Of a stretch of 64,000 nt of DNA, positions 26,778-47,804 are shown one piece after another. The notes under the pieces were generated by a model. It searched no databases. It was not told the origin of the DNA and was given only the letters and a program-made list of their open reading frames with translations. Source of the DNA: Nitrospirota bacterium (GTDB lineage Bacteria > Nitrospirota > Nitrospiria > Nitrospirales > NS-4); assembly GCA_005877815.1 (NCBI GenBank), contig VBOG01000078.1, forward strand, positions 13,291 through 77,290. The letters are read 5' to 3'. How positions within the stretch are numbered: position 1 is the first letter of the stretch; each line of letters opens with the position of its first letter. Both the position numbers and the translations under genes were made by a program.

Positions 26778-27965
26778 TTAAAGGGAGTGACGGCTGTGCA
26801 CTGGCCGCCAGAAGAGCGCCATGACGGGGACGATGAGGATGCAGGCCACCGCAAACATTGCAAAGCCAGTGGCGTACGTTCCCGTGAGGTCTCGGAAGAC
26901 GCCCAATGCCGAGGGCACCAGGAATCCGCCGATCCCCCCCGCCGCGCCGACCAACCCCGAGATGGCGCCGATCTCCCGTCTGAACCGCTGCGGCACGACT
27001 TGAAAGATCACCCCGTTTCCCATTCCCAAACACATCATCGCGAGAAAGACCGTGGAGAGCGCGAACGATAGTGGCAGCAGCATGGCAGTGATGCCGATCA
27101 GCACGGCAATAACAGGATAGAGCACGGCGAGCACACGAAGACCGCCAAGGCGGTCGGCGATGAAGCCTCCGACGGGGCGAAACAAACTCCCCGCCAGCGC
27201 ACAGGCCGCCGCTGTCCATCCCGCCTCGATATGCGTGAGCCCGTACTGGTCGAAGAAGAAAATGCTGAGGTAGCTGCTGAGACCCACAAATCCACCGAAT
27301 GTGATGGCGTAGAGTAGGCAAAACCAATAGGTGTCGGGTTCATGGAGCATCCGGCTAAAATCCATGCGGTGATCGCTTCCCCCCTCCTCCGCGATACGGT
27401 CTGAGGCCAACATCCGGTACAGGCATGCGATCAGGAAGACAAGTGGGATCATCATCCCGAAGACTGCGTGCCAGCCAAACCTCACGGCAAGAAGCGGAGC
27501 CAAGGCAATGCTCACGATAGCGCCACTGTTCCCCGACCCCGCCACACCCATCGCCAGCCCCTGATGCTGAAGTGGATAGGCGCGGCTGGCTAATGGCAAT
27601 GAGACGGCAAAGCTCGCCCCTGCGATGCCAAGCAGCAGCCCCACTCCGAGGATCTGCGGGAATGTGGTCGCGACCAGCCACGCCCACATCAACGGGATGG
27701 ACATGGCAAGCATGGTCACAAAGCCGGTACGGCGAGGGCCGAACCGGTCCGAGAGGATGCCAACGACCACACGAAAAAGCGATCCGCCAAGCAGCGGCAC
27801 CGCAACCATCAAACCTTTTTCCGTCGCCGTGAGTGAAAAGTCTTCTGCGATAAAGATTCCCAGCGCGCCGATGAGCATCCAGGTCATGAAGCTGACCTCG
27901 AAGTGCAGCCACGCGGCCAACAGCGAAGGCCAATGGCCGCTGCGAAGAGCCGCTTGAAGGGACAC
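26778..27965 (-). CDS. narK: MFS nitrate/nitrite transporter (NarK/NNP family)
   Basis: 395 aa, 12 TM. ...[23 protein letters not shown]... and ...[14 protein letters not shown]... NNP-type signatures. GTG start. Substrate specificity is not resolvable from sequence. Confidence 0.7.
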
Positions 27966-29125: not shown

Positions 29126-29551
29126 TCAGGCCGGCTTCGCAGAGTGCTCCATCACGTGCCGCACCTTCTGGAGCAGACCATCAGGTGAGAACGGCTTATG
29201 AAGAAAATTGGCGCCTGGTTCGATAATGAACTGGCCTTCCTGCAACTGAATCTGCCGCGTACTGTCCGCGTGGCCTGAGACATAGAGCACCGTCATTTCG
29301 GGCCGGTTCGATAAGAGACGGGCTGCCAGTTCCAACCCGTTCATGCCCGGCATTTTCACGTCCGTCAACAGCAGATCGATTCTGCCCGTGTGCTCCTTGG
29401 CAATGCGCAACGCCTCAAGGCCGTCGCTGGCCTCCAGAACCGTGTAGCCGTTGTCCTGCAGCACTTGCACCATGATGATGCGAACCACCTCCTCATCATC
29501 CACCACCAACACGGTCTGGAAGGTGCGGTCGTGTTCTACGTTGGCACTCAC
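29126..29551 (-). CDS. stand-alone response-regulator receiver
   Basis: 141 aa. VLVVDDEE...DLLLTDVKMPGMNG...KPF. No output domain. Confidence 0.8.
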   Translation of the reverse strand: MSANVEHDRTFQTVLVVDDEEVVRIIMVQVLQDNGYTVLEASDGLEALRIAKEHTGRIDLLLTDVKMPGMNGLELAARLLSNRPEMTVLYVSGHADSTRQIQLQEGQFIIEPGANFLHKPFSPDGLLQKVRHVMEHSAKPA

Positions 29552-29633
29552 GAGGTCACTCCATCATGAAGGGATCTTGTCCAAAACAAGTACCGTCGCA
29601 GTCCGTCAGAGTGGACTCAAGCCGAGGGGACTC

Positions 29634-30041
29634 CTAGGGAGTCACCGGCGAGTCAAGGACTTTTCGAACTTTCGTGGTGAGCCGATCCGGCGTGAAGGGC
29701 TTTTGTAAGAAGTTCGCCCCGCGCTGCAAGGCCATTTCATTGACAGTCGCGCTATCGGTGTGACCGGAGATATACAGGACCTTCACGCCTGGTCTCAAAG
29801 GCATCAGTCGCTCGGCCAATTCCCGACCGTTCATCTTTGGCATTTTAATATCCGTCAGGAGCAGATTGATCGGACCCGTGTGCTCATTGGCAATGCGCAA
29901 CGCCTCGGGACCGTTGCTTGCTTCGATCACGGCGTACCCGCTTGCCTGGAGGACATGTAAGACAAACTTCCTGACGATCTCGTCATCATCGACAAGAAGA
30001 ATCATCTCGGTATTTTTGGCTTTGTCCTGTTCCCCGTCCAC
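29634..30041 (-). CDS. stand-alone response-regulator receiver (paralogue of 29126..29551)
   Basis: 135 aa. ILLVDDDE...NLLLTDIKMPKMNG...KPF. About half the residues are identical to the neighbour. The 18-nt run GGCAATGCGCAACGCCTC is shared at DNA level. Confidence 0.8.
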   Translation of the reverse strand: MDGEQDKAKNTEMILLVDDDEIVRKFVLHVLQASGYAVIEASNGPEALRIANEHTGPINLLLTDIKMPKMNGRELAERLMPLRPGVKVLYISGHTDSATVNEMALQRGANFLQKPFTPDRLTTKVRKVLDSPVTP

Positions 30042-30996: not shown

Positions 30997-31455
30997 CTAC
31001 TGAACCAGCACCGATGCGATGACCAGGGCAGTCAACAGCACCAGGATGGCCTGATAGAGGAGGACGCTGCGATCGCCGAGCCATGCATGTTGCCAGCTTT
31101 TCGGATAGAGCGCAGTCCCCGTAAGATATCGGCCTTCCTCATACAGCCCGATGGCCTGCTCGATCCTGATCAACGCTTGCTTGGCCAGACGATGGCGTTC
31201 GGCTTGCTGGAGTATCAGAGCGGCCATGGTCCCGTTGAAAAGAACAACCCCGACGCAGGCCATGGCTTTGAGGAGGGGACTCCTGGCCGCCGGTACGACC
31301 GGGACGAACAACAACACCACAACCAACGTGGCGCCGCCGAATGCGGTCAGCCATATCATCCGCTCGCGCCGACGAAACACTTCCTCCTTGTACCATGGAT
31401 ACAGCCGGTCCAACACTTCGCGTCGCTTCTGCTCTTGCTGTAGTTCCCCTGTCAT
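30997..31455 (-). CDS. hypothetical membrane protein
   Basis: 152 aa, 3-4 predicted TM helices, no family recognised. Packed between the GlnE-like gene (4-nt gap) and the EamA gene. Confidence 0.5.
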   Translation of the reverse strand: MTGELQQEQKRREVLDRLYPWYKEEVFRRRERMIWLTAFGGATLVVVLLFVPVVPAARSPLLKAMACVGVVLFNGTMAALILQQAERHRLAKQALIRIEQAIGLYEEGRYLTGTALYPKSWQHAWLGDRSVLLYQAILVLLTALVIASVLVQ

Positions 31456-31458
31456 GGA

Positions 31459-33060
31459 TCACATCAAGGCCCTGACCCCGACAGGGCGCGTGCGTCGAGG
31501 CCTGATCTCTCCGGCGAGCACCCGAACAAAGATGTCGTGTATTCTTTCCGCGTGGCGGGCGTAATCGCGCCGGAACAACTCTTCCGCTTGGGCCTCCTCG
31601 GCATCCTTGTACCCCAACCGCAGCGCGCACACATGCAATTCGACAGGATCGGCGGATAAGGTGTGCGTCTGCTGTTCTTCCACCATCTGCAGCTTATGCT
31701 CCACGTTCCGGAGGAACCAATACCCATCGAGCAGAAACCGGTGCTCGCCCGGCCCGATGAGTCTGGCCCGGAACAATTTGCCCAACGCTTTTTCAGTATT
31801 GCGTTCTTGAACAGGCATGGCAGCGCCGAACATGGCCTGCAGAGTCTGGACCGCCAGTTCCACCTCGCGAATGCCACCGCGTCCAAGCTTCACGTTTCGT
31901 TCGGATTCTTCCCGAGCGACCATCTTCTGATCAATCAACCGTTTGATCCGCATGACCTCCGCCAAGATGGCCTTCGGTTGCGCCTTGCGGTAGACAAAGG
32001 TCCGGATGACCTTCAGAAAGCTCTTCCCGAGGGCTTTATCCCCGGCGACCGGGCGGGCTTTGATCAGCGCCAATCGCTCCCAGGGCTGTCCCCGCCCGCC
32101 TTGGTAATATCGGCCGTATTCCTTGAGCGACCCGACGATCGCTCCCGCTTTTCCCTCCGGCCGCAGCCGCAGGTCCACACGAAACAGATAGCCTTCATTC
32201 GTGACAGCGGACAGCGCATTGGTGACGTCTTGCGCCAGGCGGCGAAAATACTCGGCACGAGGCAGCCGTGAAGTCTTCCCGCCGCTCTTCGTTCCGGTCG
32301 TCGTCGCCGCGTCGGACCCGCACAGATAGACGAGGTCCACATCAGAACTGAAATTCAATTCCTCCCCGCCCAATTTCCCCATCCCCAGCACCGTGAATCC
32401 GGTGCGCGCATACCCGTACGCCTGAGCCAGTCCTTCCCTGCAGACCGCATATGCCTGCTGAATGAGGACGTCAGCCAGATGCGACAATGCCGCCGTCGTT
32501 TCGCGAACCGACGCCTTGCCCAATAGATCACGGATCCCGATCGCGAGCAACTCCCGTCGTTTGAATCGCCGAAGCGCGTCCAATTGACGTGCGTGCGACC
32601 GCAACGAGCCGAGCGTCGCACGGAGGTCCTTTTCCAGCACACGCCGCGATCGGCAGCGATCCAGCACCTCAGGTCTCGCGGCCCAATAGAGGTATTCCGG
32701 ATTCCGGATCAAGCTTTGAGAAAGAAAGGGGCTGGACCCGAATACGGTCATGAGCAGATGCAGCATCGCCGGGGAATCGTGGAGGGAGGAGAACAGTGCG
32801 ACTTTGCTTGACGACGCCTTCGCAAACCGCTCCAGATAGTCAAGCGCCTGGTCAGGGTCGGCAGAATCAGCGGCCTCGTCCAGCACCGCCTCGACCAGAT
32901 CCGCCAAGCGCTGCCGTGCCAAGGGATCGTCCGCGAGCGCTTGCAAATTGGCATCGGCGCGCGCGCAATCACGGAATCCGTATGGGCGCAGAATGTCGGT
33001 GACGGCATGCGCTCCTAGTTCCGGTGAGAGAAGCAATACGCGCGGAGAAGACCTGGGCAT
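31459..33060 (-). CDS. GlnE-family nucleotidyltransferase, single-module protein (resembles one half of GS adenylyltransferase)
   Basis: ...VLGMGKLGGEELNFSSDVDLVYLC... NTase motif followed by the GlnE helical domain (...RVDLRLRPEG...). Only one module in 533 aa. ATG 33060 is preferred over the track GTG at 33132. Confidence 0.75.
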   Translation of the reverse strand: MPRSSPRVLLLSPELGAHAVTDILRPYGFRDCARADANLQALADDPLARQRLADLVEAVLDEAADSADPDQALDYLERFAKASSSKVALFSSLHDSPAMLHLLMTVFGSSPFLSQSLIRNPEYLYWAARPEVLDRCRSRRVLEKDLRATLGSLRSHARQLDALRRFKRRELLAIGIRDLLGKASVRETTAALSHLADVLIQQAYAVCREGLAQAYGYARTGFTVLGMGKLGGEELNFSSDVDLVYLCGSDAATTTGTKSGGKTSRLPRAEYFRRLAQDVTNALSAVTNEGYLFRVDLRLRPEGKAGAIVGSLKEYGRYYQGGRGQPWERLALIKARPVAGDKALGKSFLKVIRTFVYRKAQPKAILAEVMRIKRLIDQKMVAREESERNVKLGRGGIREVELAVQTLQAMFGAAMPVQERNTEKALGKLFRARLIGPGEHRFLLDGYWFLRNVEHKLQMVEEQQTHTLSADPVELHVCALRLGYKDAEEAQAEELFRRDYARHAERIHDIFVRVLAGEIRPRRTRPVGVRALM

Positions 33061-33120
33061 GGTGGCATTATACCGTGGAAGCCGAGCGGGCACGAGGGAC
33101 GATCCGGTATAGTACCGGCC
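33061..33120. promoter_or_regulatory. divergent promoter region with -10-like hexamers abutting both start codons
   Basis: Plus strand: TATAGT (33108..33113), then 7 nt, then ATG 33121. Minus strand: TATAAT (33072..33067), then 6 nt, then ATG 33060. No Shine-Dalgarno motif before either ATG. The -35 regions are poor. Confidence 0.35.
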
Positions 33121-35283
33121 ATGACTCCTCACGCATTATGGCGTGCTCTCCTTGCCCGTCCCTGGGCTCTTGGGACGGACACGATTCGCGCCTACTGCGC
33201 CGGAATGCCGCCGGAGTACCGTGGACGATTCTCGGTCGAGACGATCGCCGAACATCTTCGGCTACTGGAAGATCTCAAAGACACGCCCATGCGTGTCCGT
33301 ATTACGCCGTTCGAAGAGGGGACTTTTGAAATCGTCATCGCGGCGCGCGATTATTTCTCTGAGTTTGCGATCATCACGGGGCTGCTGGCCGCCTTTGGAT
33401 TCGATATTCAGGAAGGCTTCATCTCCAGCGCTGAACGCTACATCCTGGATCTCTTTCGCGTACGGTCCCTTGGTTCACAGCGTTGGAACAGCGAGACGCA
33501 GAGTCAGTTTCAGGATGAGTTGACCTGGCTCGTCGGCCTGCTTGCCGAGGACCGCTTTCAAGAAGCGCGAGGACATGTGAACCGTCGTCTCACGGAAGCA
33601 CTGAGCGGCCGGGACGTCGCGGCCGCGCGGCTCGGACCTCTCGATGTTCAGTTCCGGAATCAGACGACGCGACCCTGGACCATGATGGAGCTCACCGGGA
33701 AGGATAGCCCCGGCTTCCTGTACGCCTTGGCCAATGCCTTGGCTCTTCGAGGCATCATCATACATAACGCCTACGTCCGCACCACGGCGCACGAGATCCA
33801 CGATCGGGTCGGCATCACCGATCGTCACGGCCGCAAAATCACGGGCACACGGCTCCAAGCCGAACTCCGCATCACGACGGTATTAATCAAGCAATTCACC
33901 CACTATTTGCCATCCGCACCGGACCCTGCCAAGGCCCTCGCTCACTTTGATGGAATGCTCGACCAGCTCCTCGCCGATACGCGAGCAGGCCGCATGCCCG
34001 CCTTTCTGCGCGAAAAAACCACCTTGGACTTTCTGGCCCGCTTGTTCGGGACAAGCGATTTTCTGTGGGAAGATTTTCTGCGGCGCCATCTTGACACCCT
34101 GCTGCCTGTCCTCCAAAAGCCAGGCCCAGTTGTCCGAGACCGGAATGAGTTGGCGCGCGATCTCCGCAAGCAACTTCGCCCGGCGACGACGTACACGGAA
34201 CGTAAAGAGATGTTGAACGCCTTCAAAGACCGGGAGTTGTTTCGCATTGATATGGCGCACCTGGCCGACCGCAACACTCGTCTGGAGCCCTTTTCCCTCG
34301 CCCTCTCCGATCTGGCGGAACTGGTCCTCGAAGAAGCGTGCCATGTGTGCGTCACCGAGCTTCACGTTGAATACGGCACACCGCGCATGTCCAACGAACG
34401 ACCCTCGCGGTTTGCCATCTGCGGTCTGGGCAAATTCGGCGGACGGGAAATGGGATATGCGTCCGATATCGAAGTGCTGTTCGTCTATGACGGGACCGGA
34501 GTGACTGACGGACGGACCTCTCTGGAGACCAGCGAATACTTTGAACGCCTGTCGCAAATGCTCCTGCATGTCATCGAAGCGAAGCAGGAAGGCATTTTTC
34601 ATCTGGATGTTCGACTGCGGCCGCACGGGGGAAAGAGCACCCTGGCGAGCTCCTTCGATGAAATGGCCCGGTACTACGCCAGGTCAGGCCCGGCGGCCGC
34701 GTTCGAGCGCCAAGCCCTCATTAAGCTGCGCTGGGTCGCAGGTCATCGCACCCTGGGAATGCGCGTCGAAAGGCTTCGGGACGCGCTTGTCTACAGTGAA
34801 GCGTCATTCGACATTAAAGCTGCGCTTGAACTACGAGCACGTCAGTCGGCGGAATTGGTTGGCCTCAGCGAAGTCAATGTCAAGTTCAGCCCAGGAGGGC
34901 TCGTGGACATCGAATATGCCGTGCAGTATCTGCAGATCATGCATGGCTCTCGTCATCCGGGCCTTCGCACGCCCACGACGCTTGCGGCTCTGTCGGCGCT
35001 TCGTAAGGCGGGGTTGCTGTCGGCGGCGGAGGAGACGGGACTGCGCGACAGTTATCTCTTTCTACGCCGGGTGATTGACGCCATGCGGATCGTCCGGGGA
35101 AACGCCCGGGACCTCGTGCTGCCTCGCTTGGACTCGGAGGAGTTTACCTTTCTGGCTCGGCGGCTTGGCTATCATGCGCCCCGCTGGAGCATTGGCACCG
35201 CGAAGCTACAGCGCGACATGTATCACCATATGTCATGGACTCATCGTTTCTTTAGATCGCGGTTTCGAAGCCCTTCCGCCTAA
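33121..35283 (+). CDS. ACT-ACT-like N-terminal region fused to a single GlnE-family nucleotidyltransferase module
   Basis: C-terminal 450 aa: ...ICGLGKFGGREMGYASDIEVLFVY..., ...HLDVRLRPHG... (GlnE module). N-terminal 270 aa: FEIVIAARDYFSEFAIITGLLAAFGFDIQEGFI... and WTMMELTGKDSPGFLYALANALALRGIIIHNAYVRT...DRVGITDRHGRKI, which resemble the ACT domains of GlnD. Confidence 0.75.
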   Translation: MTPHALWRALLARPWALGTDTIRAYCAGMPPEYRGRFSVETIAEHLRLLEDLKDTPMRVRITPFEEGTFEIVIAARDYFSEFAIITGLLAAFGFDIQEGFISSAERYILDLFRVRSLGSQRWNSETQSQFQDELTWLVGLLAEDRFQEARGHVNRRLTEALSGRDVAAARLGPLDVQFRNQTTRPWTMMELTGKDSPGFLYALANALALRGIIIHNAYVRTTAHEIHDRVGITDRHGRKITGTRLQAELRITTVLIKQFTHYLPSAPDPAKALAHFDGMLDQLLADTRAGRMPAFLREKTTLDFLARLFGTSDFLWEDFLRRHLDTLLPVLQKPGPVVRDRNELARDLRKQLRPATTYTERKEMLNAFKDRELFRIDMAHLADRNTRLEPFSLALSDLAELVLEEACHVCVTELHVEYGTPRMSNERPSRFAICGLGKFGGREMGYASDIEVLFVYDGTGVTDGRTSLETSEYFERLSQMLLHVIEAKQEGIFHLDVRLRPHGGKSTLASSFDEMARYYARSGPAAAFERQALIKLRWVAGHRTLGMRVERLRDALVYSEASFDIKAALELRARQSAELVGLSEVNVKFSPGGLVDIEYAVQYLQIMHGSRHPGLRTPTTLAALSALRKAGLLSAAEETGLRDSYLFLRRVIDAMRIVRGNARDLVLPRLDSEEFTFLARRLGYHAPRWSIGTAKLQRDMYHHMSWTHRFFRSRFRSPSA

Positions 35284-35720
35284 AACTCCTTGTACGGAAG
35301 CCATTTGCCGTTCATCGTAATTTTCACCCGCGCCTCGCCCTGGGCACCGGTCACTTTTTCCATATCCATCGTAAAGTCAATTGCGCTCATGATGCCGTCG
35401 CCAAACATTTCATTGGCCATGTCGCGCAGCGAGTCGCCGTATACGCCAACGATTTCCATCAATCGGTACTTGAACGGATCGGTCGTGATCGGAAAGTCGG
35501 TTCGCACCGGAAACCCCGAGACCGCATGCGCCACTTCCAACGTCAGTCCGAGCGCCGCCGCGAGCTTTTTCTCTTCATCCGGCCCAAGCCGCTGTTGTCC
35601 ATTGAGCACGGCGGCCATGTAGACGGGGTTCCTGCCCACGGCCTGCCCCAAGGCTTGAAAGGTCATCTTTTCTTCCTGTCGTTTATTCCGAATGATCGCC
35701 AACGCCTCCATCCTATCCAT
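35280..35720 (-). CDS. cynS: cyanate hydratase (cyanase)
   Basis: 146 aa. C-terminal ...SAIDFTMDMEKVTGAQGEARVKITMNGKWLPYKEF is the canonical cyanase catalytic domain. N-terminal HTH-like half. Confidence 0.9.
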   Translation of the reverse strand: MDRMEALAIIRNKRQEEKMTFQALGQAVGRNPVYMAAVLNGQQRLGPDEEKKLAAALGLTLEVAHAVSGFPVRTDFPITTDPFKYRLMEIVGVYGDSLRDMANEMFGDGIMSAIDFTMDMEKVTGAQGEARVKITMNGKWLPYKEF

Positions 35721-38799: not shown

Positions 38800-40209
38800 C
38801 TACACGTCATAGTAGAGGAAGAATTCATAGGGGTGCGGACGAAGCCGCATTGGATCCACCTCTTTCGTCCTCTTGTAGCTAATCCAAATATCCACGACGT
38901 CCTGCGTAAAAACATTTCCCTTTAACAGAAAGGCATGGTCCTTTTCCAGGTTCCGCAGCGACTCCTCCAAGCTTCCCGGCATGGTCTTGAGCTTGGCCGC
39001 CTCGTGCGGCTCGAGATCATAGAGATCTTTTTCCATGGCATGGCCCGGATCAATCTTGTTTTCGATGCCGTCCAATCCTGCCATCAGCATGGCGGCAAAC
39101 GCATAGTAGGGATTGGTGGCTGGGTCGGGGAAACGGACCTCGATCCGCTTCGCCTTCGGATTCGGCACATACATCGGGATGCGGATCCCGGCGCTCCGAT
39201 TCCGGCTGGAATAGGCGAGATTCACGGGCGCCTCGAACCCCGGCGTCAGACGCTTGTACGAGTTCGTGGTGGGATTCGTAATGGCCGCCAGGGCGGGCGC
39301 ATGTTTTAAGATGCCACCGATGTACCACAGGCACAACTGGGAAACGCCGGCGTACTCCTTGCCGGCAAAGAGCGGCTTCCCATCCTTCCAGATGCTCTGG
39401 TGTGTATGCATGCCGGACCCATTGTCACCGAACAGCGGCTTGGGCATGAACGTGACAGTCTTGCCGTGTCGCCGGGCTACATTTTTAATGACGTACTTAT
39501 ACATCATCATCTTGTCGGCCATGGTCGTCAGCGTGTCATACCGAAGGTCGATCTCCGCTTGCCCTGCCGTCGCGACCTCATGATGGTGTTTCTCGATCAT
39601 GATACCCATCTTTTGCATCTCATCGACCATCTCACTGCGAATGTCCTGCTGGGTATCAATGGGTGGAACAGGGAAATAGCCTTCCTTATGGCGCGGTTTG
39701 TTGCCGAGGTTGAAGCCCTCTTTGCCGGAATTCCAGATGCCTTCGTCCGAATCGATGAAGTAGTAGCCGCTGTTGCTCGTCTGATCGTAGCGCGCGTTAT
39801 CAAAAATAAAGAACTCGGCTTCCGGTCCCCAGTACGACACATCGCCGATCCGCGTAGACTTCAGATACTTTTCCGCCTTTTGCGCCACGAATCGGGGATC
39901 CCGGCTGTAATTTTCGCGCGTGATGGGATCGACGACGTTACAGATCATGCTGAGCGTCGGCATGCTCGTAAAGGGATCCATTACGGCAGTCTTCGTGTCC
40001 GGCACGATCATCATGTCGCTGTTGTTGATCGCCTGCCACCCACGAATCGATGAGCCGTCGAATCCCGAACCGTCGGTGAAGACCGAATCCGTCAATTCTT
40101 CGATCGGGATCGTGAAGTGCTGCCACGTTCCCGGAAAATCGACGAACTTCAAATCCACCATGATGGCCTTGTGTTTTTTTGCCAGCTCCAGCACTTCCTT
40201 CGCAGTCAT
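38800..40209 (-). CDS. glnA: glutamine synthetase type I
   Basis: 469 aa. ...FDGSSIRGW..., ...[16 protein letters not shown]..., adenylylation-loop ...[10 protein letters not shown]... with the Tyr retained. Confidence 0.95.
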
Positions 40210-40248: not shown

Positions 40249-42927
40249 TCATGGCAACGAGGTTCGTTGCACGACCGGACGCCCCGCCCGATCTCCTCCG
40301 AAGAATTGTTCGATTCGCGTCGTGATCTCGGCGCTGATGGCGTCGCAGCGGTCCTGCGCCTCAACTTTCTCGCCGCCCTCATCCGTCACATAAAAGACAT
40401 CCGCCACCTGGTCGAGTTTCGTGGCGATCCTTGCGGCATGCACCGAAAGACCGAGATCAAAAATGGTTTTTGTCAGTACGTACAGCAGCCCCTGCCGGTC
40501 GTCGGCAAAGACGTCGATGATGGTATACCGATCCGACGTCTCATTGTCCACCTGCACGACCGTGGGTTCTCGAAGGGGGACACCCTGTCGGCCGGCGCCG
40601 AAACGCGTTGCCTCCCGGAGCAGTTTTTCCACGTCCATGCGACCTTCCAGGACCGCAATGATGCTCTCGCGTATGTCGCCGGTGCGCCGCGTCTCCGGGC
40701 CTTCCGGGTAGTCCGGATCGAGCACATGGAAAACGTCCACCACCACGCCGTCAGCCAGCGTCATGATCTGTGCATCGAGAATCTGTACGCCCCTTGATGC
40801 CAACACACCCGCAATCTTTGAAAAGATGCCAGGCGTCAGGCTGTCGCGAGTGTAGACGGTATATTCCGTCGCGTTGATTCCAGGATGGTGCTCGGCATCC
40901 ACCAGCACGGTGGCGTCATTGAGCCTCCATAACCATTCCAAATGGGATGCGATCCGCTCCACGGTCAGGACGGAGAAAGCCCGATCCGGCCACGCTTCAA
41001 GCTGGCGGGTCAACCATTGCACCGGCAGGCGATCCTCCAACCGCTGGAGCACAGCTTTCCGGACTTCCATCTTTCGAAGCCGATCCTGCTCCGTCGCCTC
41101 GCGTCCCTCTTCCCTGGCCAACTCAGCGAGCGTCTTGAGATACAGCTCGCTCAACAGCGTCTCCTTCCACTTGGTGAAGACGTCCGGGCCAACGGCGGAG
41201 ATGTCGGCGGCCGTCAACACGTACAACTTCTTCAATGCCTCGGCCGTGCCGACCTCACGGGCAAACCGCAGCACGACCTTGTCGTCGGATGCGTCCCGCC
41301 GAAATGCCGTATTTGACATGAGCAGGTGATGGCGGACCAGGAAGGCCAGCAGTCGGGTCTCATGTTCTCCCAAGCCGAGACGCGCGGCGGTCTCCCGTGC
41401 GATCCGTTCTCCGACCACACTGTGATCTTCACCCTGTCCCTTTCCCAGATCGTGGAGCAGCACGGCGAGGTACAGCACTTCTTTGTGTTTGATTTCCTGA
41501 TAGGCCTGACCGAGCATGCCAGGCGCCACGCCCAGTGTTTCGGCTTGGCCTAGCGCAAGCAGACTGTGATGGTCCACGGTGTACTTGTGATAGGCATTGA
41601 ACTGCATGAGGCCACGAACCGGTCCGAAGGCAGGGATCATGCGTTCCAGGAGGCGCACGCGATGCATGCAGGCGAGGCTGTCGGCGGCGGGCGCTGTCCC
41701 GTCGAGCATGGAAAGAAATGTACGGCATGCGTCCGCACTGCGAAATGCCGCATCGGGGACCGTCCCCAGCCGCTCGGAAAGATCCTGCAGCAATTCGTCG
41801 GCGATCGCGAGGCCATAAATCTGACCAAGTTGAAAAAGCCGTAGCACTCGGGCATCGTCCTCCAGGAATTGCTTCCGCAGAGAGACCGGTACGGTGATCT
41901 CATCCCGCGTGATCGCAAAATACGTTTCGATCTGACGGGCCGGCAGCCAAGCCGAAAGCCGCTGCCAGAACGACTTGACCATGGCCCGTGAGACGAATTG
42001 CCCCGTCACGTCGGCCACATGCGCTGAATGCCGATAGTACTGCTGCATGAACTGCTCGACCGACAACAGGTGCGGCGCGTTCTGAAAGCCCCAGGCAGCC
42101 GCGATCCTGATCTGTTCATCGAAGGTGAGGATGTCCTGGGCACGCCCGGCATGAAAATGCAGTTCATTGCGGATGCGCCAGAGGAAATCCTGGGCGGCCT
42201 TGATCGACACGGCATCACCGGTGGCCAGGACGCCCCGTTCAGCCAGCGCTTCAAAAGAGGGCGTACCGTAGCGGGCCAGTGCCACCCACTTCAGCAAATG
42301 TAGGTCTCTCAGGCCTCCCCGACTCTTCTTCAGGTTGGGCTCGAGCAGGAAGGTCGTCGCCCCGAAACGCCCATATTCACGCCGGCGCTCTTCAAGCTTT
42401 TGCAGGATGAATTCCTGTATCGCATTCCCTGTCACCTGTTCCCGGAAGGTCAGACTGAACTGCTGAAACAGGGTCGCATCCCCGGCAATAGATCGGGCTT
42501 CCATGAGCGACGTTCGGATGATCAGTTCGGCCCGCCCCATCGCCAAGCAGTCCCCGATGGTCCGTAAGCTATGGCCGACTTGAAAGCCTAAATCCCACAG
42601 GGCGTGCAAGACCTTCGTGGAGACAGAGCGGGCGAACTCTTCCCGGTCAGGACCATACAGAAACATGAGATCGATATCTGAATATGGCGACAGCTCCCGA
42701 CGACCATAGCCGCCCAGGGCGACAAGACAGACACCTTCCGGCGCGACGCCTCCAACGGCCTCACGGAATACCTCCATGAGAATGTCATCCGTCAGCGCCG
42801 TCAAGGCCCGCACGATATCCGTGCCGCCGCTTCCCTGACGGTGCGCCGCTGCAATGGCGGAACGCCGGGATTCGAGCCTCTCCCGTGTCCACACTTCCGG
42901 CGCGCCGATTTTCAGCGCTTCTCCCAT
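40249..42927 (-). CDS. glnD: [protein-PII] uridylyltransferase/uridylyl-removing enzyme
   Basis: 892 aa. NTase (...ALGGYGRRELSPYSDIDLMFL...), HD domain (...LHDLGKG...), two C-terminal ACT domains. Confidence 0.9.
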   Translation of the reverse strand: MGEALKIGAPEVWTRERLESRRSAIAAAHRQGSGGTDIVRALTALTDDILMEVFREAVGGVAPEGVCLVALGGYGRRELSPYSDIDLMFLYGPDREEFARSVSTKVLHALWDLGFQVGHSLRTIGDCLAMGRAELIIRTSLMEARSIAGDATLFQQFSLTFREQVTGNAIQEFILQKLEERRREYGRFGATTFLLEPNLKKSRGGLRDLHLLKWVALARYGTPSFEALAERGVLATGDAVSIKAAQDFLWRIRNELHFHAGRAQDILTFDEQIRIAAAWGFQNAPHLLSVEQFMQQYYRHSAHVADVTGQFVSRAMVKSFWQRLSAWLPARQIETYFAITRDEITVPVSLRKQFLEDDARVLRLFQLGQIYGLAIADELLQDLSERLGTVPDAAFRSADACRTFLSMLDGTAPAADSLACMHRVRLLERMIPAFGPVRGLMQFNAYHKYTVDHHSLLALGQAETLGVAPGMLGQAYQEIKHKEVLYLAVLLHDLGKGQGEDHSVVGERIARETAARLGLGEHETRLLAFLVRHHLLMSNTAFRRDASDDKVVLRFAREVGTAEALKKLYVLTAADISAVGPDVFTKWKETLLSELYLKTLAELAREEGREATEQDRLRKMEVRKAVLQRLEDRLPVQWLTRQLEAWPDRAFSVLTVERIASHLEWLWRLNDATVLVDAEHHPGINATEYTVYTRDSLTPGIFSKIAGVLASRGVQILDAQIMTLADGVVVDVFHVLDPDYPEGPETRRTGDIRESIIAVLEGRMDVEKLLREATRFGAGRQGVPLREPTVVQVDNETSDRYTIIDVFADDRQGLLYVLTKTIFDLGLSVHAARIATKLDQVADVFYVTDEGGEKVEAQDRCDAISAEITTRIEQFFGGDRAGRPVVQRTSLP

Positions 42928-42929
42928 GG

Positions 42930-43298
<369 letters not shown>

Positions 43299-45069: not shown

Positions 45070-45936
45070 TCAATAATTGATGTCGAGTTGCACGGTCCAC
45101 TTCCACTGGCCATTGATGACATGGTCGTTGAACCAGACTGGACCGGTCAGGAGACTGATGTCTTTGGTAAAGTAGTGATACATTCCGAAGCCACCGCCCC
45201 CGATGAAGTTTTTCCCGCTGGCGTAGTCCGCGGCAAACACCCACTTGTTGTACTCGTTGCCTTCCTTATCTTTGACTTTCCAGAACCCATAGTCGTATCC
45301 GACCATGCCGCCGGCATTATCCAATTCGCCGCTGGCCCCGGCTATGCAAGCCAGTGCGGGATTTCTCGGGTTGGGTTTGCATCCTCCCTGCCGCATCAGG
45401 ACTGAATCAGGATTACCGTAATACCCGCCACCATGGATTCTGCCGAAGGAGCCGAGTGTTTTACCGACAATAATATCGATAATGTCCATGTTAGTGACTT
45501 CGCTTTTCGTCCCGACGTTAAAAATGCCCACATTGATGGCCGGGAACCAGGTACCGAACGCGCCCTCGGGCGTGCCGATTTTAGCGTTGAAGAGTAACGA
45601 ATTGCCGATCGACCGCATGACGGGACTGATGCGCGTGCCTGGAAACAATCCATCAATCCCGACTTCCATCTGGAGTTTTTCAAAGGGCAGCACGCCGACT
45701 GTCAGACCCACATCCGTGGGGAATGAATCGAATTGGCCGTTCGCCAACTCTTCCTGCGTTCTCGAAAGCCGAAAGTAATTGTCCACCCCGATGTGCCACA
45801 CATTAAACGGTTGCACGTCTGATGTGGCCGGGGTCCAGTACGTCGTCGAGGGAGTGGCATAGGCCATGCTTGCCATGCACACTCCCGACAACGTCGTCAC
45901 CATCGCGGTCTTCAGAATTCGCGTCATCATCTTCAT
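45070..45936 (-). CDS. putative outer-membrane beta-barrel protein (family not recognised)
   Basis: 288 aa from ATG 45936 (GGAGG upstream). Signal peptide ...CMASMAYA. Gly/Tyr/Asn-rich alternating segments and a C-terminal ...WKWTVQLDINY aromatic end typical of OMPs. First gene of the amt string. Confidence 0.5.
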   Translation of the reverse strand: MKMMTRILKTAMVTTLSGVCMASMAYATPSTTYWTPATSDVQPFNVWHIGVDNYFRLSRTQEELANGQFDSFPTDVGLTVGVLPFEKLQMEVGIDGLFPGTRISPVMRSIGNSLLFNAKIGTPEGAFGTWFPAINVGIFNVGTKSEVTNMDIIDIIVGKTLGSFGRIHGGGYYGNPDSVLMRQGGCKPNPRNPALACIAGASGELDNAGGMVGYDYGFWKVKDKEGNEYNKWVFAADYASGKNFIGGGGFGMYHYFTKDISLLTGPVWFNDHVINGQWKWTVQLDINY

Positions 45937-45995
45937 ACTGTCGCCTCCGTCGTGCTCATGCAGAAGGTTGTCGTGCGGTCGCTTTCGCTGCAATC

Positions 45996-46064: not shown

Positions 46065-47804
46065 CTACCAGCCCCTGTACCGATTGGTGATCGGCATCCT
46101 CCGATCCTTCCCCAAGGCTCGAGGGGTGATTTTGACACCCGGAGGAGACTGGCGGCGCTTATATTCACTGCGATCCACCAGAGACAGGACTCGCTCCACC
46201 GTGACCCGGTCGAAGCCGAGACTGGCCAGATCGCCGACACCCTGATCCTCTTCCACATAGCCTTTGATGATAGGGTCCAAGATTTCATAGGGCGGCAGAG
46301 AATCCTGGTCCGTCTGGTTGTGACGTAGTTCGGCTGTCGGCGGCCGGACAAAGACGCGTTTCGGGATGACGGGGTCCGGATCGCGCGCATTGCGCCATCT
46401 GGCCAGTTCATAGACTAACGTCTTGGGAACATCCTTGAGGGCGGCAAAGCCACCGGCCATATCGCCGTAGAGCGTGGCATACCCGACGCTCATTTCGCTC
46501 TTGTTGCCGGTGGTGAGCACAAGCCATCCATACTTGTTCGACAACGCCATCAGCACCGTGCCACGAATTCTTGACTGTAAATTTTCCTCCGTTACATCCG
46601 GACGCCGTCTTTTGAAGACAGGAGCGAGAACGGATCGAAAAGCCTCAAACATGGGAGTGATCGGGACCACATGATGGCGGATACCGAGACTGACCGCACA
46701 CGACTCGGCATCTTCGCGTGAGTCTTCGGAAGAATAGACTGAGGGCAGGTAGACGCTCACGACGTTGGATGAACCCAGGGCATCGGCGGCCAGCACCGCA
46801 GTGAGTGCTGAGTCGATGCCACCACTGAGACCCAACACGACCGTCTTGAAGCCGTTCTTCCCTGCATAGTCCCGGATGCCGAGCGCCAGCGCTCGATAGA
46901 CTTCTTCCAGAGGCGAGGGCAATGCAGGGAGGCCACCATGAATCAATGATCGGACACGGCGGCGATGCCGAGCTGACACGACCACGCGCTCCACAGAAGC
47001 CCCCTTCCGCTCAAGCATCCGGTGCTTTCTCCGTCGCTGAGGATCATGCATCCGGGCGCGCGCGACGGCGTCCACATCGACGTCGGCCACAACCAGGTCC
47101 TCTTCGAACGCCCGTCCGCGGGCGATCGTCCGTCCGGCCTGATCGATCACAAGACTATTGCCGTCGAAGATCAGTTCATCCTGGCCTCCGACGAGATTGA
47201 CGTAGGCAATCGGAACAAGATTATCCATGGCGCGCGTCGAGAGCATTTCCTCCCTGACGCGCAACTTCCCTCGCTGGTAGGGAGACGCGCTGATGTTGAT
47301 GATCGCTTCCGCGTCTCCAACCAAGGCTTGAGTCCGCGTTGGACCCTCCGGATACCAGATATCTTCACAAATATTGACACCCAGCGTGATGCCGTTGAGG
47401 ACGATGGTCAGACTCTTGCGAGCCGACTGGAAATACCGGTTCTCATCAAACACACCGTAATTGGGAAGACAGGTCTTATGTTGAACGGCCACGACCCGCT
47501 TATTGCAGATAAAGGCGGCGGCGTTATAGAGATCTACCTTCCGATCCACAAAGCCCACCACGGCGGCAATCCCCCGAACCTTTGCGGTGAGCTGATCGAG
47601 GATCCTGATGTTGTCGGTAATAAAAGAGGGCCGCAGCAGCAGATCTTCCGGAGGGTACCCGGTCAATGTCAGCTCAGGAAAGACCACGAGATCCGCCTTC
47701 GCCTCTTGCGCCGCTTCCATTGCATAAAGGACTAGGCGGGCATTGCCGTCCAGATCTCCGACCGTGGTATTGATTTGCGCCAACGCGAGCCGCAGCATCC
47801 GCAT
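46065..47804 (-). CDS. nadE: glutamine-dependent NAD+ synthetase
   Basis: 579 aa. N-terminal CN-hydrolase domain (...FPELTLTGY...NICEDIW...) plus a C-terminal NAD-synthase domain (...LGLSGGIDSAL...). Confidence 0.9.
   Translation of the reverse strand: MRMLRLALAQINTTVGDLDGNARLVLYAMEAAQEAKADLVVFPELTLTGYPPEDLLLRPSFITDNIRILDQLTAKVRGIAAVVGFVDRKVDLYNAAAFICNKRVVAVQHKTCLPNYGVFDENRYFQSARKSLTIVLNGITLGVNICEDIWYPEGPTRTQALVGDAEAIINISASPYQRGKLRVREEMLSTRAMDNLVPIAYVNLVGGQDELIFDGNSLVIDQAGRTIARGRAFEEDLVVADVDVDAVARARMHDPQRRRKHRMLERKGASVERVVVSARHRRRVRSLIHGGLPALPSPLEEVYRALALGIRDYAGKNGFKTVVLGLSGGIDSALTAVLAADALGSSNVVSVYLPSVYSSEDSREDAESCAVSLGIRHHVVPITPMFEAFRSVLAPVFKRRRPDVTEENLQSRIRGTVLMALSNKYGWLVLTTGNKSEMSVGYATLYGDMAGGFAALKDVPKTLVYELARWRNARDPDPVIPKRVFVRPPTAELRHNQTDQDSLPPYEILDPIIKGYVEEDQGVGDLASLGFDRVTVERVLSLVDRSEYKRRQSPPGVKITPRALGKDRRMPITNRYRGW

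Follow-up and report, generated by a model that had tools for sequence, protein, structure and literature searches.

How would an enzyme that is known as a single bifunctional protein work if its two modules were encoded by separate genes? This question is raised by a gene pair within a 64,000-nucleotide stretch of DNA from a Nitrospirota bacterium (contig VBOG01000078.1 of assembly GCA_005877815.1), referred to in the following as the window. GlnE, the adenylyltransferase of glutamine synthetase (GS), is a textbook bifunctional enzyme, the opposing adenylyl-removing (AR) and adenylyl-transferring (AT) activities of which are coordinated by signaling within one molecule. In the window, two divergent genes, here called P1 and P2, each encode one GlnE module, and P2 carries in addition an N-terminal region related to the ACT domains of the PII uridylyltransferase GlnD. 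Sequence comparisons suggest, with a probability that we put at roughly 0.7, that P1 and P2 are a naturally split GS adenylyltransferase in which the ACT domains would gate the AT half, probably by sensing glutamine.

Domain content of P1 and P2

P1 (31459..33060, minus strand, 533 aa) and P2 (33121..35283, plus strand, 720 aa) are two complete open reading frames (ORFs) lying back to back on opposite strands, with their start codons 60 bp apart. Annotation with profile hidden Markov models (HMMs) found one GlnE nucleotidyltransferase domain (PF03710) and one GlnD_UR_UTase or HEPN-like domain (PF08335) in each protein, and a GlnD-type ACT region in P2 only. In P1, PF03710 covered residues 102-350 (32011..32757, minus strand; E 1e-62, 212 bits against a Pfam gathering cutoff of 24) and the substrate-binding domain PF08335 residues 384-512 (31525..31911, minus strand; E 7.6e-27, 94.5 bits against a cutoff of 21). 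The corresponding domains of P2 were found at residues 305-551 (34033..34773, plus strand; E 1.6e-43, 149 bits against 24) and 581-712 (34861..35256, plus strand; E 1.6e-16, 61.1 bits against 21). The canonical GlnE equivalog models of NCBIfam (PRK11072, PRK14108 and PRK14109) have cutoffs of 487-724 bits, which neither protein reached, the best scores being 331 bits for P1 and 198 bits for P2; each protein spanned only half of these models, with scores of 181-331 bits. One PF03710 and one PF08335 domain apiece together with the half-length equivalog matches identify P1 and P2 as one GlnE module each, and the domain and homology statistics for the pair are far beyond chance. The arrangement is thus as described in the earlier note, which had assigned each GlnE module to a gene of its own on opposite strands.

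For P1, an alternative GTG start at 33132 would yield a protein of 557 aa. The ATG at 33060 was favored because a 99%-identical database protein likewise has 533 aa, because the N-termini of relatives agree with it and because a conserved −10 box lies 6 nt ahead of it. The start of P2 (MTP...) is kept in its relatives.

Assignment of the AR and AT module types

Which of the two modules performs which reaction had not been decidable by eye in the earlier note. As a reference, 145 canonical two-module GlnEs and E. coli GlnE were cut into N- and C-modules, and one HMM was used per class. P1 scored 481 bits with the N-module HMM and 414 bits with the C-module HMM, which puts N ahead by 67 bits, and P2 gave 344 bits with the C-module HMM and 280 bits with the N-module HMM, with C ahead by 64 bits. 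The preference extended to both families: N exceeded C in 108/108 members of the P1 family (mean difference −75 bits), and C exceeded N in 118/118 members of the P2 family (mean +55 bits). The phylogeny of the modules, run as a neighbor-joining (NJ) tree of 92 modules over 404 columns, separated the N-modules and the P1 family from the C-modules and the P2 family with a bootstrap value of 85/100. Each of the two families was monophyletic (100/100), and P1 was nested among the canonical N-modules. Class-discriminating columns, i.e. those with a conservation of 80% or more and a residue that differs from class to class, agreed in three of three cases with an AR type for P1 and an AT type for P2.

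A single class-specific active-site position has been described for the E. coli enzyme, where N169 is essential for AR activity and is matched by G697 in the AT module (Khater and Mohanty, PMC4454073). Asn was present at the N169 position in 109/109 members of the P1 family (N236 in P1) and, among the canonical N-modules, in all 137 with a motif match. Gly was found at the G697 position in 118/119 members of the P2 family, including P2 of the window (G445); the remaining one failed to match the motif pattern. These residues lie in the catalytic motifs GMGKLGGEELNFSSDVDL of P1 (32332..32385, minus strand; residues 226-243, with Asn236 and an Asp-x-Asp pair) and GLGKFGGREMGYASDIEV of P2 (34423..34476, plus strand; residues 435-452, with Gly445 and an Asp-x-Glu pair). 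The former matches GMGKLGGGELNFSSDIDL of E. coli AR and the latter resembles GYGKLGGWELGYSSDLDL of E. coli AT. A third carboxylate, in an xD-x-RLRP context, was present in both proteins (VDLRLRP in P1, LDVRLRP in P2), so that the G-x-G-K-x-G-G ... S-D-x-[DE] motif and all catalytic carboxylates are found in P1 as well as in P2. In the P2 family these motifs are invariant.

Several observations weigh against the AT assignment of P2. When single sequences were compared with canonical proteins by phmmer, P2 preferred the C-module in only 82 of 146 cases, and the AR structure 1v4a stood slightly above the AT structure 3k7d for both P1 and P2. The best Foldseek matches of the whole P2 model were these same two E. 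coli GlnE structures, with E 2e-17 for 1v4a and E 1e-15 for 3k7d. In addition, the P2 family is very divergent, with a Kimura distance of about 1.6 to both module classes, and in the canonical C-module reference set Asn occupied the N169-equivalent position in 39 of the 111 matched sequences, i.e. Gly is not universal there. Single-sequence comparison, whether by phmmer against the PDB, by phmmer against canonical proteins or by Foldseek with the whole model, proved ambiguous as an AR/AT classifier for P2 and was discarded; profile HMMs, the tree and the signature residues do separate the two types. There is strong support for a predicted AR type of P1, and good but weaker support for a predicted AT type of P2, the difference being due to the divergence of the P2 family. 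In silico, the module HMMs, the NJ tree (85%), the three columns and the Asn/Gly residue settle what inspection by eye had left undecided: P1 groups with the N-modules and P2 with the C-modules, and the grouping of both with the same GlnE module, which the earlier note had named as speaking against its proposal, was not found.

The ACT-like N-terminal region of P2

Residues 19-250 of P2 matched positions 617-840, in the last quarter, of the 850-position GlnD model TIGR01693 (E 6e-28), and the same stretch was matched by eight GlnD models in all. In BLASTP, residues 37-259 gave a collinear alignment with residues 654-875 of the window's GlnD (28% identity, E 2e-11), and the GlnD counterpart of this segment comprises the pre-ACT helix, ACT1 and ACT2. 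AlphaFold2 models of P2 contained two beta-alpha-beta-beta-alpha units with a small helical bundle ahead of them. The predicted local distance difference test score (pLDDT) was 80 for the whole protein and 86 for the N-terminal 268 residues, with a predicted template modeling score (pTM) of 0.82 for the latter. Unit 1 (33289..33546, plus strand; residues about 57-142), supported by the AlphaFold secondary structure and the GlnD alignment, contains the invariant D77-YFSEF...G87, and unit 2 (33640..33915, plus strand; residues about 174-265), supported by a Pfam ACT match at 190-236 and the structure models, contains the invariant D195-TPGFLYA..NAL..RG. The ACT-loop residues D77 and D195 are both invariant in the P2 family; GlnD and ACR11 are reported to keep the equivalent Asp in both of their ACT domains (PMC11190351).

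Foldseek searches of the PDB with the N-terminal units of P2 retrieved amino-acid sensor modules of the ACT type, namely the ACT region of the mycobacterial 180-kDa glutamate dehydrogenase L-GDH180 (E 5e-6), and further the Ile-bound regulatory domain of threonine dehydratase (IlvA), the ACT-like domains of GL3/R, SerB2, CASTOR1 and 2nyi. A sequence search of the PDB with this region gave no useful match, and no GlnD ACT structure was found by sequence. A weak Pfam score counts against an ACT assignment: on P2 of the window, ACT (PF01842) matched unit 2 only (residues 190-235, E 3.9e-4), with 20.6-23.5 bits against a gathering cutoff of 27. ACT or ACT_ACR9_3rd was matched at E <0.01 in 7-8 of 12 P2-family N-termini. 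The TIGR01693 match, the alignment with GlnD, the structure models and the Foldseek results all characterize the region as ACT-like, and homology and models together identify it as a predicted GlnD-type double ACT module. The resemblance to the C-terminal ACT domains of the window's GlnD that had been noticed earlier is therefore borne out, by the 28% identity as well as by the two predicted ACT folds.

Two peculiarities of the P2 family were noted. In most Nitrospira homologues, the beta2-beta3 loop of ACT unit 1 is enlarged by about 30-40 aa of Arg/Pro-rich, low-complexity sequence (alignment columns 124-160); this insertion is absent from P2 of the window (at residues about 103-104; window positions 33400-33430) and also from two homologues (P0017 and P0018). 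The invariant motif LARLFGTSDFLWEDFLR (P2 residues about 303-321) had a pLDDT below 50 in the full-length model despite its extreme conservation; this segment may be a hinge or an interface.

Distribution of the pair

The spread of the split and of the ACT fusion was surveyed over one genome per GTDB species, as the earlier note had proposed. This yielded 571 matching stretches, the best 80 of which were examined. Homologues of P2 with the same architecture of 720-770 aa number in the hundreds, and all named ones belong to Nitrospira, Nitrospiraceae, Nitrospirales or Nitrospirota; the closest non-identical relative of P2 shares only 60% identity. P1 homologues of about 510-590 aa occur in the same taxa, on contigs shared with P2 homologues. 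The best 80 of the 571 loci were from Nitrospirota, N. moscoviensis, N. lenta and a Ca. Manganitrophaceae chromosome among them, except for an unlabelled 'uncultured bacterium' record and a 2.6-kb contig binned as Bryobacteraceae. Both genes, with a DUF3800 gene between them, were also seen on a contig binned as Blastocatellia (L084). The Bryobacteraceae and Blastocatellia contigs may have been mis-binned.

According to tblastn, a P1 homologue lies immediately upstream of and divergent from the P2 homologue in about 70 of the best 80 loci. The exceptions were two convergent pairs (L033 and L083), a pair with an insertion (L030), one P2 homologue without a partner (L077) and several truncated contigs. 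At L030, from Ca. Manganitrophaceae, the insertion measures 2 kb and includes a helicase-like gene. At L077, tblastn placed no P1 homologue closer than 4 kb to the P2 homologue. The divergent pair was also present in the complete genomes of Ca. N. bockiana and N. moscoviensis, in different contexts; in Ca. N. bockiana it adjoins complex I genes, and the pair is therefore conserved independently of its surroundings. The split GlnE with an ACT-fused AT-type half is a lineage-wide trait of Nitrospirales and is not peculiar to this genome.

A canonical GlnE (P0241), whose nearest named relative in a homologue search was 'NC10' with 47% identity, has an N-module that is sister to the P1 family. The nesting of P1 among canonical N-modules weakly suggests that P1 arose by fission of a fused ancestor. 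A 943-aa protein (P0021) was considered as a larger fusion and rejected, as it is an over-long, mis-called P2 homologue, the first ~220 residues of which are antisense to the neighboring P1 gene.

The intergenic region

The 60 bp between the two genes (33061..33120) are predicted to form a shared divergent promoter region. The −10-like hexamer TATAAT (ATTATA on the plus strand) lies on the minus strand at 33067..33072, 6 nt upstream of the P1 start codon, and a second one, TATAGT, on the plus strand at 33108..33113, 7 nt ahead of that of P2. In the intergenic region of the window, neither start is preceded by a Shine-Dalgarno sequence. Relatives share the layout of a start codon, about 8 nt, ATTATA, 37-39 nt, TATACT or TATAGT, about 7 nt and ATG. 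With a strict pattern, which gives a lower bound, this layout was found in at least 49 of 80 sequences (79 related loci and the window), that is in at least 48 of the 79 related loci, and a gap of 60-67 bp is conserved across Nitrospirales. The spacer of most Nitrospira includes the conserved element CGCACAA(T/C)GAA, which on the minus strand gives TTGTGC-N17-TATAAT. Based on these consensus matches, the pair probably has back-to-back promoters giving rise to leaderless or near-leaderless mRNAs. At one locus (L005) the pair of −10 boxes is almost perfectly palindromic (ATTATACCGGAA...TTCCGGTATAGT), and the intergenic region of close relatives contains a sigma-54-like TGGCAC that has no match in the window.

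In the earlier note, independent transcription of the two genes was proposed to allow independent regulation of the two activities. Divergent transcription of the genes stands, but a conserved promoter region shared within 60 bp fits coordination at least as well as independence. The layout suggests coordinated rather than independent transcription, and any independence of the two activities would more likely be achieved at the protein level, via the ACT domains.

Neighboring nitrogen genes

Past P2, the minus strand between 35280 and 45122 carries a compact cluster for nitrogen assimilation, which encodes cyanase (cynS), an ABC transporter (ATPase, permease and an NMT1_2-type binding protein), glnA, glnD, PII and amt. 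The presumed substrate, a type I GS, is encoded by glnA at 38800..40209 (minus strand; TIGR00653, E 2e-203), with the Tyr397 codon at 39019-39021. It is followed by glnD for a full-length PII uridylyltransferase (40249..42927, minus strand; TIGR01693, 706 bits), residues 654-875 of which are those homologous to the P2 N-terminus, and by the gene for PII (GlnB/GlnK; 42930..43268, minus strand; PF00543, E 2e-33) with the T-loop Tyr51 in YRGTEY. The codons for GS Tyr397 and PII Tyr51 as well as glnD and amt all lie within 10 kb, with glnD 5 kb from P2. Both tyrosines were read directly in the sequence, as reported earlier, and with the full-length GlnD nearby all partners of the GS adenylylation cascade are present.

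Several features of the surroundings are of separate interest. The cyanase gene is directly linked to the GS, PII and GlnD genes, and the region is flanked by narK (26778..27965) and nadE (46065..47804). The 3′ end of P2 overlaps that of the convergent cynS (35280..35720, minus strand) by 4 bp (35280-35283), which leaves no space for an intervening terminator. On the other side, 4 nt past the stop codon of P1, begins a 152-aa ORF for a predicted membrane protein (30997..31455, minus strand), which may share a transcript with P1. This ORF matched no Pfam family and was rejected as a third component of the system, since it has a conserved counterpart at a single related locus (L005, 47% identity). 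Between rpoH and an EamA-type transporter gene (29126-30041, minus strand) there are two tandem stand-alone receiver-domain proteins of 141 and 135 aa without an output domain. Finally, a 307-aa ORF between amt and nadE (45070-45993, minus strand) has a signal-peptide-like N-terminus and no Pfam match; it may encode an outer-membrane or porin-like partner of the ammonium transporter.

Proposed function and alternatives

From the observed domain content, homology, module types, intact catalytic motifs, conservation of the pair and target Tyr, we infer the following scheme for the reactions on GS, the ligand, the sense in which the ACT pair acts and the part played by PII. P1 would be the adenylyl-removing enzyme, reactivating GS by phosphorolysis of Tyr397-AMP, and P2 the adenylyl-transferring enzyme, inactivating GS by AMPylation of Tyr397. 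In P2, the upstream AR module of canonical GlnE, probably along with part of the central regulatory region, would have been replaced by the GlnD-type double ACT sensor. The ACT pair would bind a small ligand that reports nitrogen status, most likely glutamine as in GlnD, and ligand binding would switch on the AT module, so that GS is shut down at high glutamine. In this way the ACT pair could substitute for the regulatory input that the AT module receives from the AR module and PII in canonical GlnE. P1 would reverse the AMPylation, either constitutively or under the control of PII and PII-UMP. Both genes would be expressed from the shared back-to-back promoter, probably as leaderless mRNAs, and their synthesis is likely to be coordinated.

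This scheme draws on what is known of the parts. GlnD needs its ACT domains for the response to glutamine, according to Zhang et al. 2010 as cited in PMC11190351, and an unrelated enzyme is made activatable by glutamine through a GlnD-like ACT domain (PMC11190351). The isolated AT half of H. seropedicae GlnE was active and glutamine-responsive in vitro and had lost control by PII-UMP (bioRxiv 10.64898/2026.09.02.748916). Two points tell against the scheme. The shared promoter argues against transcriptional independence of the two activities. Moreover, the glutamine site of the E. coli enzyme lies within the AT half itself, and the ACT domains of P2 might sense something else. A more far-reaching version is a rewired cascade, in which a stand-alone AT enzyme would read glutamine directly via GlnD-type ACT domains and independently of PII, next to a separate AR enzyme with its own control. 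We consider this possible and put it forward tentatively; if true, the two opposing activities of GlnE would here, for the first time in a natural system, be physically uncoupled and under separate regulation.

Instead of acting apart, P1 and P2 might assemble into a stable heterocomplex that reconstitutes the canonical bifunctional GlnE, including the cross-talk of the modules known for the E. coli enzyme, with the ACT pair as an added input and the split of little regulatory consequence. Near-strict adjacency and the conserved bidirectional promoter of 60-67 bp across Nitrospirales suggest stoichiometric co-expression, and in H. seropedicae and E. coli the AT half depends on the N-terminal half for receiving the PII-UMP signal (bioRxiv 10.64898/2026.09.02.748916), both of which would suit such a complex. 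We nevertheless regard it as unlikely, given that the genes are separated or rearranged in several genomes (L030, L033, L083 and L077) and that the place held in canonical GlnE by the AR module and the central region, immediately ahead of the AT-type module, is taken by the ACT pair.

The origin of the P2 N-terminus bears on its substrate as well. With a GlnD-derived N-terminus and an NCBI name, assigned by PGAP, of '[protein-PII] uridylyltransferase family protein', P2 could be taken for a functionally GlnD-like enzyme that nucleotidylylates PII or another signaling protein rather than GS, and the occurrence of DrrA among the Foldseek matches is a reminder that transferases of the GlnE fold can have other substrates. 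Such a role appears improbable: the catalytic module is of the GlnE type (PF03710, E 1.6e-43), the GlnD model TIGR01693 is matched only via the ACT part (97.5 bits, cutoff 519), the Pfam matches of P2 include no HD-domain family, a complete GlnD is encoded 5 kb away, and P2 homologues are paired with an AR-type GlnE module, divergently so in about 70 of the best 80 loci. Very improbable, finally, is a loss of catalysis or a change of role in one of the two proteins, P2 with its divergent sequence being the likelier one, which would then only sense a ligand and regulate its partner or GS. The high divergence of the P2 family from both canonical modules and the Glu in place of Asp as second metal-binding carboxylate would fit this, but the GxGKxGG...SD-x-[DE] motif is invariant over its whole length across 20 aligned P2-family members (48-62% identity), as are the third Asp and many residues close to the active site, and Asp-x-Glu is a permitted form of the pol-beta nucleotidyltransferase motif. 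A split adenylyltransferase with an ACT-gated AT half remains the reading that we prefer.

Relation to known systems

Nitrospira are globally important nitrite oxidizers and comammox organisms, and to our knowledge the post-translational control of their ammonium assimilation is essentially unstudied. For N. moscoviensis, 'GlnEB (NITMOv2_1289, NITMOv2_1290)' is listed without comment (PMC6131200), and streamlined lake Nitrospira are described as lacking glnE (PMC9239080). Public names are inconsistent and partly misleading: JGI uses GlnE, whereas the PGAP name of P2 is the uridylyltransferase one quoted above and P1 is often 'hypothetical'. We found no published description of the split, the ACT fusion or the AR/AT assignment in the searchable literature. 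Neither the components nor the database entries of the genes are new; the interest of the pair lies in a natural uncoupling of a classic bifunctional regulator within a lineage of environmental importance. The split offers a clean experimental handle on what each GlnE half does alone and which signals reach each, and it bears on whether fusion itself is needed to avoid futile cycling. Naming as AR or AT on the basis of the Asn/Gly position could be propagated to several hundred genomes.

Compared with canonical GlnE (E. coli b3053; AR structure 1v4a, AT structure 3k7d), P1 and P2 have the same two module types, each composed of a nucleotidyltransferase and the HEPN-like PF08335. They share with the E. 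coli enzyme the catalytic motifs, including the AR-specific Asn in P1 and the AT-type Gly in P2, and the presumed substrate Tyr397, PII and GlnD are present. Unlike canonical GlnE, a single protein of 950-1070 aa, they are two polypeptides encoded on opposite strands, and the AT-type half has an N-terminal double ACT region. There is no covalent link from AR through the central regulatory region to AT, and intramolecular signaling in the E. coli manner cannot work as such.

With GlnD, P2 shares the homology of its residues 37-259 to the C-terminal ACT1-ACT2 region. In P2, however, the ACT pair forms the N-terminus and is followed by a GlnE-type transferase in the same protein, whereas that of GlnD is C-terminal to a GlnD-type transferase. 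A GlnD-like ACT domain as a portable sensor of glutamine or other amino acids on an unrelated catalytic domain has precedents in the plant ACR proteins and in the Chlamydomonas alpha-amylase AMA2 (PMC11190351, PMC3173338). These fusions differ from P2 in their catalytic partner and in their lineage. We know of no report of a GlnE partner for a GlnD-type ACT fusion. The closest experimental parallel to the split itself is provided by engineered GlnE halves, i.e. AT-N and AT-C of E. coli and deltaNT-GlnE of H. seropedicae, in which the isolated halves keep their respective activities (bioRxiv 10.64898/2026.09.02.748916). Those halves are laboratory truncations, whereas the separation of P1 and P2 is natural, ancient and conserved, and its AT-type half has acquired an added sensor domain.

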